From positions 1 to 33,229 of IMG/VR virus record IMGVR_UViG_3300010361_000025: a DNA stretch of 33,229 bases, one strand, 5' to 3'. Both the position numbers and the translations under genes were made by a program. Shown here piece by piece: positions 275-19,134 of the stretch (position 1 is the stretch's first letter; each line of letters starts with the position of its first letter). The DNA comes from a virus (lineage: Duplodnaviria > Caudoviricetes). The notes beneath the pieces are model-generated. The model was not told where the DNA came from. It ran no database searches and saw only the letters and a list, made by a program, of their open reading frames with translations.

Positions 275-303
275 TAGACTTTTCGACTTGAATCAGGTAG
301 ACT
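275..303 (+). promoter_or_regulatory. SigA/sigma70-type promoter TAGACT-17bp-TAGACT
   Basis: -35 at 275-280, exact 17-bp spacer, -10 (TANNNT) at 298-303, upstream of a hairpin and RBS for the CDS at 354. Confidence 0.65.
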
Positions 304-311
304 TCGAAATC

Positions 312-329
312 CGACCCCTTACGGGGTCG
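312..329 (+). other. 5'-leader stem-loop CGACCCC-TTAC-GGGGTCG
   Basis: Perfect 7-bp stem at the predicted transcript 5' end, followed by an A/C-rich tract and AGGAGG. Confidence 0.65.
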
Positions 330-353: not shown

Positions 354-743
354 ATGCCAAGACCACGTAAAAGCGCAGCCCTAAGCACAGAGCAGCTCGC
401 TTACCTGGCCGGCATCTATGAAGCGACGTTGGGACTCAGGGGCGTCGGAACCAACGGTGCGTGCGGGATCTCCAACACCGAGGAGTGGCCGCAGTACATG
501 GCTGCGACATACGGTGGCAATGCCACGGCGTTCACGTCGAACGCTGGAAAGACGATTTGGGGATGGTGGGTGCCGATTCCACGCAGGCTGGAGATCACCA
601 ACCTGCTAAAAGAGGCTGGTGTGTGCAAGACGCTCACCATTGAGGATTGGGACAAGGTGATCAACAAGCAGAAGAAGTGGGTTGACAACTTGGAGTACAG
701 CGACTCTGAAAAGCCGGATGGAAGCGGGCCGGTCGGGAAGTGA
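354..743 (+). CDS. Hypothetical protein, degenerate LAGLIDADG-like domain (129 aa)
   Basis: ATG at 354 after AAGGAGG. QLAYLAGIYEA resembles the LAYLAGLIDxEG helix; downstream ISNTE, YGG and WxWxV match the spacing typical of the fold. Confidence 0.55.
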   Translation: MPRPRKSAALSTEQLAYLAGIYEATLGLRGVGTNGACGISNTEEWPQYMAATYGGNATAFTSNAGKTIWGWWVPIPRRLEITNLLKEAGVCKTLTIEDWDKVINKQKKWVDNLEYSDSEKPDGSGPVGK

Positions 744-769
744 ACCCGGAAATAGCGGGATTTCACGAC

Positions 770-798
770 TAGACTTCATCGAGTCCAGCTAGTAGAAT
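770..798 (+). promoter_or_regulatory. SigA/sigma70-type promoter TAGACT-17bp-TAGAAT
   Basis: -35 at 770-775, 17-bp spacer, -10 at 793-798; same -35 hexamer as the promoter at 275. Confidence 0.7.
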
Positions 799-802
799 AG
801 GC

Positions 803-890
803 GGAGTGCCCCGGCGACGAGGGTGGTGCTGTGACGAGTCTCCATCCTCGTGCCAATCGTCAGACCCGGTTGGGCACGCCGGGGCGCTCC
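803..890 (+). ncRNA. Candidate structured RNA (three-way junction) in the 5' leader of the CDS at 913
   Basis: P1 803-816/877-890 (14 bp), P2 817-826/842-851 (10 bp), P3 about 852-859/867-875. Non-Watson-Crick positions in the stems are G-U pairs apart from one bulge in P3. Confidence 0.6.
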
Positions 891-912
891 TGAAATCAAA
901 CAAAGGAAACCA

Positions 913-1287
913 ATGGGTGAGATCACCCGCGCGCTTCTGATGAAGATGTGCGCAGAAGCAACCATAGAGGCAGTGGACAACCTTCTGCAGACCAGCCAGC
1001 TTCTCGGTGGGCTAGCCAAGGCCGTGATGGAGGAGCAGGAGGCAGCCGACCTGGTGAACCCAGAGCAGCTGATTGAAGCATCTGCAAGATGCATTGACAC
1101 CATCGAGTTGATTGTGGAAGCAGCTCGACCGCCCGAGCACGAGCTGAGCGACTGGGAGCAGACGAACCTCCATCATGAGCTAGTCCAGGTGCGCAACCAA
1201 CTACAGAGGATGCGCAACCAGCTTCTCAACATACCCAACGACGTAAAGGAGGACAGTGGACGTTCTGACATACAACAGGATGCCTGA
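913..1287 (+). CDS. Hypothetical helical/coiled-coil protein (124 aa)
   Basis: ATG at 913 after CAAACAAAGGA; Leu/Glu/Gln-rich helical sequence. Confidence 0.75.
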   Translation: MGEITRALLMKMCAEATIEAVDNLLQTSQLLGGLAKAVMEEQEAADLVNPEQLIEASARCIDTIELIVEAARPPEHELSDWEQTNLHHELVQVRNQLQRMRNQLLNIPNDVKEDSGRSDIQQDA

Positions 1288-2530: not shown

Positions 2531-3201
2531 TGGCCAAGGCTCGGCCTCTTCGCAAGCAGAGCCAGAAGTGGAAGAAGATCCAGGCCCGTGACGAGCGCAA
2601 GCCGTCTGTCTGCGGAGCGATCACGCGAGGAACCAAAACGGGTTGCAAGCGACCGGCGGGATGGGGCACCAACCATATTGGGATCGGCCGCTGTAAGACT
2701 CATACTGGTCAATCGCCGAGCGGACGTAAGAACTCCATCGTGGTTGAGGCGCAGCAGTTCATGGGCGCGCCCAAGGACATCAACCCGCTCGACGCGATCA
2801 TGTGGTGCATTCGGATTACGGCGGGCGAGGTCGAATGGCTGAGCCGCGAGATCGCGAAGGTGCCAATGGAGCAATGGGTCGAGGTCGCCTACATCGGCCG
2901 ACAGATGAACGTCTTGCAGCGCTCGCGGGCCGATGCGCAGGACAGGCTCGTTCGTTACAGCCGCGATGCGATCCAGCTGGGACTGGCGGAACGCGCGGTC
3001 AAGCTCGCCGAGAACTTCGGCATGATGATTGCGCGTCTGCTGGAGAACATCGCGGCTGAGTTGGAACTGAGTCGCAAGCAGAAGGAGATGTGGCCGACGA
3101 TCATTCGTCGGCAGTTGATCTTACTTGAGGGCGGGGTGCCACCTGAGCCCGCCGAACTGGTCGAGGGTGAGGTCATTGCCGAAGTCGAAGACGCAGCTTA
3201 G
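2530..3201 (+). CDS. terS: Terminase small subunit (putative)
   Basis: N-terminal CGAxTR..GC..PAGWGTxHxGxGRCKxH (HGGxSTG-like) motif and helical body; immediately upstream of TerL. Confidence 0.7.
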   Translation: MAKARPLRKQSQKWKKIQARDERKPSVCGAITRGTKTGCKRPAGWGTNHIGIGRCKTHTGQSPSGRKNSIVVEAQQFMGAPKDINPLDAIMWCIRITAGEVEWLSREIAKVPMEQWVEVAYIGRQMNVLQRSRADAQDRLVRYSRDAIQLGLAERAVKLAENFGMMIARLLENIAAELELSRKQKEMWPTIIRRQLILLEGGVPPEPAELVEGEVIAEVEDAA

Positions 3202-5738: not shown

Positions 5739-5821
5739 TGAACAGAACCTGGACAGCAACTGAAGTTTTTGTCCTCGGAATCTTCATCGTGCTTCTGGTC
5801 GAGCTGATCCATACCTGGTAA
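5738..5821 (+). CDS. Membrane micropeptide (27 aa)
   Basis: AAGGAG RBS, TGATG and TAATG overlaps exactly filling the gap; MNRTWTATEVFVLGIFIVLLVELIHTW. Confidence 0.7.
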   Translation: MNRTWTATEVFVLGIFIVLLVELIHTW

Positions 5822-10079: not shown

Positions 10080-11069
10080 ATGGAAAGCAGAGTCAAACTG
10101 GCCGAAGACATCGTCTGGGTTCCGGGACAGCCGGGCATCACTCGGGCGAGGGAGGCCATCGAGGCGTCCACGTATCCCAACCCTGTAGCTCACCCGCTCG
10201 GCCCTCCGACGGTGAGCGGTACGACAATCACGATGGACATCGCGCTGAACGCTCCGACGCGGATCACCCGAACGCTGATGGATCTCACGCTTCAGAGGTT
10301 CTTTGCAGATCGGGTGTTCACTTCGTCGGGTGGCGTCACCGGCGGTGCCGTCGTCTACGATCAGCTGCTGGCCAACGATCTGTACTCGGATCGTGACATC
10401 CAGCGCGTTGCTCCCGGTGACGAGTTCCCGCTCGTGACCAGTTCGCGCAGGGTGCCGGCAGTCGCGGAAGTGGAGAAATGGGGCGGCAAGTTCTTCGTCA
10501 CGGTCGAAGCTCGCGACCGCAACGACGTAGCCGTCTTCACCCGAAACGTCCGCATGCTCGCGAACACCATCGTCCGCAAGATCAACCAGCGGGCGGTCGA
10601 GGTCTTGGAGGCTGCCGTGCAGGCGTCTCCGAACCGCCTCGTCACCGGCGTCAACTGGGCAACCGTCGTCACGGCGGGCGCTTCGGCGTCGAACTCCAAC
10701 CTGTGGCCTGGGTACGACTTCAGCCGTGCGCAGGCTCAAGCCGAGACCGAGGAGCTGGGGATCGTGTACGATCTCTGGATCCTCAACCCGCAGGAGTACC
10801 TGCAGCTGGCCCGCATCTACGGGCCGGATCTGAACAACCTGCTCGCTTCGCTCAACCTGGCGATCTTCGTGACGAACCGCGTGCCTGCGGGCAACGCCTA
10901 CGTCGTGCAGTCCGGTCAGGTCGGGCAGATGCGCACCGAGCAGCCGCTGCAGACCACGCAGTGGTACGAGCAGGAGACGGAGCGGTTCTGGACGCAGAGC
11001 AGTGTCCGGCCGTTGATGTTCGCGGACAACCGCTTCGCCGTACTCAAGTTCACCAACCTCGCCGGGTAA
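10080..11069 (+). CDS. Major capsid protein
   Basis: 329 aa, strong RBS, strongly biased codon usage, position after scaffold and cement; VAPGDEFP, VEKWGGKF, ARDRND motifs. Confidence 0.88.
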   Translation: MESRVKLAEDIVWVPGQPGITRAREAIEASTYPNPVAHPLGPPTVSGTTITMDIALNAPTRITRTLMDLTLQRFFADRVFTSSGGVTGGAVVYDQLLANDLYSDRDIQRVAPGDEFPLVTSSRRVPAVAEVEKWGGKFFVTVEARDRNDVAVFTRNVRMLANTIVRKINQRAVEVLEAAVQASPNRLVTGVNWATVVTAGASASNSNLWPGYDFSRAQAQAETEELGIVYDLWILNPQEYLQLARIYGPDLNNLLASLNLAIFVTNRVPAGNAYVVQSGQVGQMRTEQPLQTTQWYEQETERFWTQSSVRPLMFADNRFAVLKFTNLAG

Positions 11070-18895: not shown

Positions 18896-19134
18896 TGCCG
18901 CCGACACCTAAGAAGGCGGATACCAAGACGGCAACAACGACGACGTACCGCTACGTCGGCGATCACGCAATCGTCCTGGAGGGCGGGAGACCGCTCGGGC
19001 CTGGAGAGTTCATCGATCTCTCCACCGAGGATCTGTCCCAGGGACTCAACAAGGATCTGCTCGAATCGGGGATGCTGCTCGATACGACCGCACCACCCGA
19101 GACCGAAGCAGCTACACAGGAGGATGAGGCATGA
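18895..19134 (+). CDS. Small pre-sheath protein
   Basis: Coupled on both sides; GAGGAGG RBS. Confidence 0.7.
   Translation: MPPTPKKADTKTATTTTYRYVGDHAIVLEGGRPLGPGEFIDLSTEDLSQGLNKDLLESGMLLDTTAPPETEAATQEDEA

Follow-up and report, generated by a model that had tools for sequence, protein, structure and literature searches.

Positions 803 to 890 of the analyzed viral DNA (33,229 nucleotides, hereafter the window) hold a real, so far uncatalogued structure. It belongs to a familiar kind, with a puzzling modular feature: a strong stem at the predicted 5' end of an mRNA carries what look like two loop modules within one closing stem. Among the orthologous leaders of related phages, position and pairing are conserved, and shape is not. 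We propose, giving the reading about an even chance of being right, that in the leader of the gene starting at 913 the bases predicted to come first in the mRNA are paired, which would block 5'-end-dependent decay and leave the A-rich ribosome-binding site open.

Genomic setting

The window covers the morphogenesis half of the genome of a phage with a contractile tail, with the terminase at 3125, portal at 5821, major head protein at 10080 and sheath at 19131; its gene order is collinear with that of a complete 60.6-kb relative (G001), and from 913 to past 32,000 all genes share one direction. The host is probably an actinomycete, because the best matches of the capsid protein are Gordonia and Mycobacterium phages, at no more than 50% identity. 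No sequence variants within 803-890 were found in contigs of four of the nine DNA runs, two of which cover the segment completely.

The helical-bundle protein encoded immediately downstream of the leader yielded no Pfam or PHROG match and no Foldseek match at E<=0.001, and has nine database matches, itself among these. The upstream protein (354-743), with 57 matches in the representative library, is a candidate regulator: the 13 best VIA-align rows for its model are all LAGLIDADG-fold chains, headed by WhiA (8dy9_I; Z 7.4, a middling score; rmsd 3.0; 88 aligned), and the Foldseek search at E<=0.001 was empty. It could be a domesticated homing-endonuclease-type regulator. A second tandem paralogue was seen by eye in L009 and L050. 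No relatives were obtained by searching viral contigs with the 354-743 protein or genome contigs with the 913 alignment, and the Atlas yielded no usable match for either protein.

Several compositional features of the region were noted in passing. Palindrome-rich CGCG tracts at 104-271 and 2194-2246 have common TATATCGCG motifs in inverted orientation and bracket the block of small genes; similar tracts occur in relatives, and those of the window are possibly origin, packaging or promoter elements. Positions 1-102 form a low-complexity A/C-rich tract devoid of G, with a 22-nt direct repeat (50-71, 73-94), and strand-biased tracts lie at the matching place in relatives. Upstream of the 354-743 homologue, L005 (~1500-2036), L003 (~1800-2129) and L002 (~1700-2000) have stretches of odd repetitive composition in which some dinucleotides are seemingly avoided, followed in L003 and L005 by a terminator-like hairpin (all by eye).

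Table 1. Features of the leader region, in window coordinates
Feature	Position	Strand	Basis
Another promoter of this class (275-303), followed by a small 5' hairpin (312-329)	275..329	+	pattern scan, fold
Upstream gene, single-domain protein of predicted LAGLIDADG/WhiA-like fold	354..743	+	structure model, pLDDT 79
Imperfect palindrome just 5' of the -35 box: CCCG 745-748, 7-nt center, CGGG 756-759	742..764	.	kept in L002, L003, L005, L009, L012
Promoter: -35 TAGACT (770-775), 17-nt spacer, -10 TAGAAT (793-798)	770..798	+	sequence; kept in relatives
Predicted transcription start (A)	805	+	15 of 18 orthologous leaders have A as the 7th base 3' of the -10 box
P1 closing stem (805-816/877-888), predicted to sequester the 5' end	805..888	+	fold; closing stems of differing sequence at the same place in relatives
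P2 arm (stem 817-826/842-851), loop module A (GACGAGTC, 833-840)	817..851	+	8-mer in loops of L003, L008, L012
P3 arm (stem 853-859/867-873), module B (CGTCAGACC ... GGTTGG)	853..873	+	9-mer shared with L005
A-rich spacer, weakly paired, with ribosome-binding site AAGGA (903-907)	891..912	+	A makes up 65% of the last 20 nt; pairing probability averages 0.37
Downstream gene, 124-aa helical-bundle protein	913..1287	+	structure model, pLDDT 82

Fold and transcription signals

The sequence-only reading had described 803-890 as an 88-nt non-coding segment of three helices lying just downstream of a -10 box. Its sequence and coordinates are as claimed and the three-armed fold is real: the plus strand has a minimum free energy (MFE) of -58.9 kcal/mol (z -6.54), with none of 200 shuffles equally stable, and is stabler than all 3014 of the 88-nt grid windows (best -48.5; step 22; the target was placed by hand), compared with -44.4 kcal/mol (z -3.09) for the minus strand. 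The 14-bp P1, the 10-bp P2 with its 15-nt interior and the 7-nt P3 loop were recovered, and P3 has 7 bp in the MFE structure and the proposed 8 in the centroid. As a DNA inverted repeat, P1 spans the full 14 bp (803-816/877-890). The helices contain four G-U pairs and no mismatches. The case for selection on the plus-strand RNA, which had been read from these G-U pairs, stands for the window, where the plus strand is 15.4 kcal/mol stabler than the minus strand (control windows: mean -1.4, sd 5.1 kcal/mol), but not across homologues, in which the plus strand is the stabler one in 12 of 21 leaders (p 0.66).

That the segment is no known riboswitch, ribozyme or tRNA was borne out by Rfam and ARAGORN, which returned no family, tRNA or tmRNA. 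None of the Rfam 15 covariance models reached its gathering score in the window or in 20 related loci, and the only matches for 700-1000 (E 0.42 and 9.2) both scored far short of the cut-offs. Nothing meaningful came from a blastn search of 50,697 phage records, and none of the accessible papers describes the leader. A riboswitch was considered and rejected, given that no column 3' of the promoter is invariant among 13 aligned leaders, there is no terminator, and alternative folds lie at least 13.8 kcal/mol above the MFE.

The -10 box is present, and a -35 box precedes it at 17 nt. This promoter pattern occurs twice in the window (770-798 and 275-303) and not once in 100 shuffles; its TAG (-35) and TAG..T (-10) columns are invariant in the 13 aligned leaders, and the spacer is variable. 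A scan with the pattern returned five loci, two of them already-known relatives and the others L016, L017 and L020. The earlier placement of the RNA start at 803 gives way to 805, since the seventh base after the -10 box is so often A (Table 1); the transcript thus probably begins at A805, in which case the stem would begin within about two bases of the 5' end. At the other end, P1 is continuous with the mRNA, AAGGA and the ATG at 913 lie outside the strong helices, and no terminator or U tract follows P1. Of the two roles suggested previously, the cis-acting leader is therefore supported, since the fold opens at the +1 predicted for a conserved promoter and continues into the ribosome-binding site and start codon, and the small RNA is unsupported, because P1 is followed by neither a U tract nor a terminator. 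Translation from GTG 850 was rejected as unlikely, in that the closest homologues have their initial Met-Gly where 913 lies and many leaders contain in-frame stops, in agreement with the non-coding status originally assigned.

At the neighboring promoter of the same class (275-303 in the window), a hairpin of 6-9 bp starts no more than about 5 nt from the predicted +1; this applies to roughly 11 of the 14 genomes, and z is below -2.4 in 10 of them; the two promoters of the window have no stem sequence in common. The leftward early leaders also begin with a hairpin. With a hairpin at both promoters and in these leftward leaders, this is a general design of such promoters. The palindrome upstream of the -35 box, which is flipped in L007 (1452-1476) and L008 (27-51), is a candidate operator, to which the 354-743 protein perhaps binds, or a candidate weak terminator of the 354-743 gene.

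Six of the leftward early leaders that carry boxA-like sites begin with a promoter and 5' hairpin and continue into a long folded tract, resembling a miniature rRNA operon leader. The boxA-like sites form pairs 260-483 nt apart on the minus strand (G002:C1 46511-46027; G001:C1 25808 and 25388; L005 784-273; also L062, L064, L067, L068, L072, L073 and L100). This region, which lies 5' of the window start, has no Rfam match. In the rightward leader of L072 (3190-3276), a boxA-like site lies within a hairpin loop.

Orthologous leaders

Using the downstream protein and the terminase as queries, we obtained 18 distinct leaders at the orthologous promoter, including that of the window. Left out of this count were L004 (identical to the window), the duplicates L010 and L043, the weak partial matches L013-L015, L045/L067 (no promoter there), and L001, L006, L011, L037, L042 and L051, each of which ends before the leader; the distant L083, L085 and L089 were held apart, and the unpublished-genome loci L125 and L173 were excluded. 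Six of the 18 (L041, L048, L049, L050, L072 and L100) yielded no detectable 913 homologue, and their leader lies in front of the gene that comes next; in L048, where this gene starts is uncertain. One relative (L045/L067) has neither the promoter nor the leader before this gene.

In 17 of the 18 leaders, a G+C-rich stem ahead of the start codon pairs base +2 or +3 with a probability of at least 0.79, and the folding of every one of the 18 surpasses that of its shuffles (z -1.9 to -7.0). Stem sequence and length vary (59-149 nt), and the leaders do not align well enough for a covariance model. Eleven leaders are single hairpins, four are separate tandem hairpins, and three, those of the window, L002 and L057, are three-way junctions. 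A novel three-way-junction family, as first proposed, is not borne out: the junction is confined to these three, and the loop motifs sit in single hairpins of relatives that have no partner arm.

The distant L083 (321-428), L085 (1492-1584) and L089 (572-710) have a long leader hairpin with an invariant loop and a perfect 10-bp complement just 5' of the ribosome-binding site, a match reached in none of 18 swaps and clear in this group only. It is a candidate translational pseudoknot, although devoid of covariation.

Loop modules

The P2 loop 8-mer GACGAGTC recurs exactly in hairpin loops of L003, L008 and L012 (shuffle p 0.007, 0.003 and 0.010, respectively), and GGGTG plus the 8-mer is invariant in all four module-A arms; the stems bearing it change in sequence with pairing maintained. 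The P3 9-mer CGTCAGACC is also present in L005 (p 0.010), with a weaker 6-nt match in L009 (p 0.22). Relatives thus bear the two motifs of the window singly, three of them the former and one the latter. In reverse orientation, the CGTCAGACC 9-mer occurs in L041 (p 0.010) and a 7-nt module-like string in L048 (p 0.056), which argues against strict RNA-level recognition. These p values come from 40 pairwise comparisons in two orientations and are uncorrected. The window and its module-sharing relatives are only 24-45% identical at fourfold-degenerate sites, and L007 and L008, which are 91% identical at such sites (53 of 58), have unrelated loops. This pattern is compatible with selection acting on the loops and equally with leaders having recombined recently.

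Derivation of module A from a host RNA was rejected: none of 49 rRNA loci contains the exact 8-mer, and a search of 401 actinomycete genomes with the module A hairpin pattern returned 15 matches in 14 genomes (one of the 15, on which no conclusion rests, in the unpublished G127) against 7 control matches. In viral contigs the pattern has 12 matches, of which only that in L157, the L003 contig, has a -10 box upstream; the other 11, in long stop-free frames, four of them in an apparent helicase motif (by eye), were taken as chance. The P2 arm (817-849) resembles the DNA of this apparent motif, V-V-x-D-E-S-S-I-L, in L154, L160, L161 and L163 of other phages, which was likewise taken as chance.

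Proposed function and alternatives

In the proposed mechanism, transcription would start at A805, and P1 would pair the first bases of the mRNA and hide its 5' end, which would then be shielded from attack by RppH, RNase E or RNase J. The A-rich ribosome-binding site ahead of ATG 913 would stay open. The three-way junction would be a by-product of placing in one closing stem two apical modules that are single in relatives, and retention of the loop sequences hints at a further role in binding proteins. RppH and RNase E require single-stranded 5' ends, with B. subtilis RppH requiring two or more unpaired bases (PMC3997798), and stem-loops at the 5' end count among the features reported to stabilize mRNA (PMC7509114). 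Protection of the 5' end is further favored by the register of the stem with +1 in 17 leaders and the better-than-shuffled folding of all 18, by the hairpin design shared with the neighboring promoter and the leftward early leaders, and by the continuity of the RNA past P1 in the absence of a terminator. Against it stands a Mycobacterium smegmatis study of ~1800 transcripts, in which half-life showed no correlation with 5' UTR structure and a reporter gained no stability from the esxB hairpins (PMC11728522), the host here being probably also an actinomycete. Protection also leaves unexplained the 8-mer loop kept where fourfold sites have diverged so far, stems far longer than the hairpins of the neighboring promoter, and boxA in some of the leaders, and it has to contend with the lack of plus-strand preference across homologues and with the relative that has no promoter and leader at this place.

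In a rival reading, the stable, abundant 5' stem is a scaffold that presents interchangeable loops for binding phage or host proteins, acting as a translational operator or as a decoy against host defense. We regard this as unlikely overall: the exact recurrence of GACGAGTC in the window, L003, L008 and L012 despite their divergence, the unrelated loops of the near-identical L007 and L008, and the co-occurrence of both modules in the window all speak for it, but either module is present in at most 4 of the 18 leaders, recent leader recombination gives the same pattern with no selection, strings in reverse orientation occur in L041 and L048, and the rRNA and actinomycete genome searches revealed no host RNA source. 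The occurrence of motifs and of the upstream palindrome in both orientations, the missing strand preference and the inverted repeat that reaches 2 nt 5' of the predicted +1 would also suit inverted repeats acting at the DNA level, as a cruciform, operator or recombination site, or an RNase III processing stem; the stem-loops of the PeSL cassettes of T4-type phages mediate shuffling (PMC2839356). Such a role is nonetheless highly improbable, given a stem in register with +1 in nearly every leader, the much greater stability of the plus strand conferred by G-U pairs in the window, and the unrelated stem sequences of its two promoters. A tentative synthesis, which we also hold to be improbable, is that this highly expressed leader is a cassette with a constant 5' stem and a small exchangeable repertoire of loops for protein binding or decoy, sometimes with a borrowed rRNA boxA, the window being the two-module version.

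The boxA sites raise the prospect of a leader for antitermination in the style of rRNA operons, in which a hairpin is followed by a boxA bound by NusB/NusE, serving the long rightward operon, with the boxA of the window decayed. The matrix used was derived from bacterial rrn leaders and spacers and seeded by a boxA core, and the core match was found in 47 of 49 loci, some of these being -35 boxes. It identified a site in five leaders (L005, L009, L049, L050 and L072; p 0.002 each), always 3' of a hairpin, which is the rrn order (L102; PMC10250234), and together with the pairs of boxA-like sites that ten related loci have in their leftward early region and the unidirectional genes downstream of the leader, this is consistent with antitermination; the clade appears to use a boxA signal. 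However, the other 13 leaders have no boxA, that of the window among them (score -0.9, p 0.17), and the resemblance at 884-896 requires gaps and is half buried in P1. In E. coli rrn antitermination, boxA is necessary and sufficient (PMC10250234); it is missing from the window leader, which therefore falls outside that class, making antitermination here quite unlikely. A tertiary-structured RNA with loop-loop or loop-tail pairing (a kissing complex, pseudoknot, pRNA-like oligomer or switch) is very unlikely as well. The complementary strings on which kissing had been proposed, TGACGA (832-837) with TCGTCA (857-862) and GTCT (838-841) with AGAC (862-865), are where they were said to be, and P2 loop and P3 arm share a complement of at least 6 bp in 249 of 5000 shuffles (p ~0.05). 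As loop-loop pairing the proposal is weak: positions 857-859 belong to the P3 stem, paired at a probability of 0.98-1.0, so that half of the partner is buried; loop against loop, only 4 bp are available, as in 1343 of 5000 shuffles; and forced nested refolds reach -39.0 or -34.7 against -52.8 kcal/mol, a cost of 13.8 and 18.1, respectively. Relatives offer some encouragement, in that the two loops of L057 can form 6 bp (by eye), the L003 and L012 loops each have a 6-bp match in their own 3' tail (shuffle p 0.018 and 0.028), and the Fisher-combined loop-shuffle test over 13 groups gives p 0.005. Nevertheless, the shuffle signal comes mainly from the distant, possibly non-orthologous L083, L085 and L089 and from an L057 match in coding sequence; the loop-loop test gives p 0.40 for the window and 0.14 for L057, there being only three junction-type leaders, with unalignable loops; and cross-pairing across homologues is no better than in swap controls (combined p 0.53), with a permutation p of 0.074 for the 18 leaders and 0.27-0.35 without near relatives. 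By the same two controls, a loop-to-tail pseudoknot in the close group, striking by eye, was rejected.

Comparison with known systems

In phi29 pRNA and other kissing-loop three-way junctions, three helices meet at one junction and two apical loops are presented. The likeness ends there: the junction is not kept in relatives of the window, the topology being seen in only 3 of 18 leaders with that of the window included, loop complementarity appears not to be kept either, and the RNA here is continuous with the mRNA; a pRNA-like kissing-loop junction is not supported. Comparison with the orthologous leaders removes 803-890 as a candidate new riboswitch or kissing-loop family. The rrn operon leader (boxB hairpin, boxA, boxC; L102 and PMC10250234) has a promoter and then a 5' hairpin as here, with boxA next in 5 of the 18 leaders; the window leader differs in having no boxA and in feeding a protein-coding operon. 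The PeSL cassettes (PMC2839356) similarly place a strong host-type promoter adjoining a stem-loop with G/C runs before small genes whose function is unknown and which differ between relatives, but their stem-loops are terminators, genome-wide repeats and recombination sites, whereas the window stem is intratranscript, has no U tract and is unrepeated. A PeSL cassette was rejected in view of the unrelated stems at the two window promoters and the missing U tract, the window covering one half of the genome.

Among the close counterparts are the 5'-terminal stem-loop stabilizers of E. coli ompA and papA and B. subtilis aprE (PMC3997798 and PMC7509114). These have a strong stem at or near the first base, as the window leader would with a start at A805, and, like that leader, no sequence family and an open ribosome-binding site 3' of the stem. 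The window leader is longer, with a 12-bp closing stem and two arms, and the stabilization proposed for it is doubtful in mycobacteria (PMC11728522). If 5' protection is true, the 18 leaders would be a natural series of strong 5' leaders for a probable actinomycete host and would directly test stabilization of mRNA by 5' stems, which that one mycobacterial study reports as not general. A further difference from the ompA, papA and aprE stabilizers is that the loop motifs here are common to distant relatives and exchanged among close ones; if the modules bind proteins and swap between near-identical phages, they would hint at an undescribed RNA layer of phage-host conflict.
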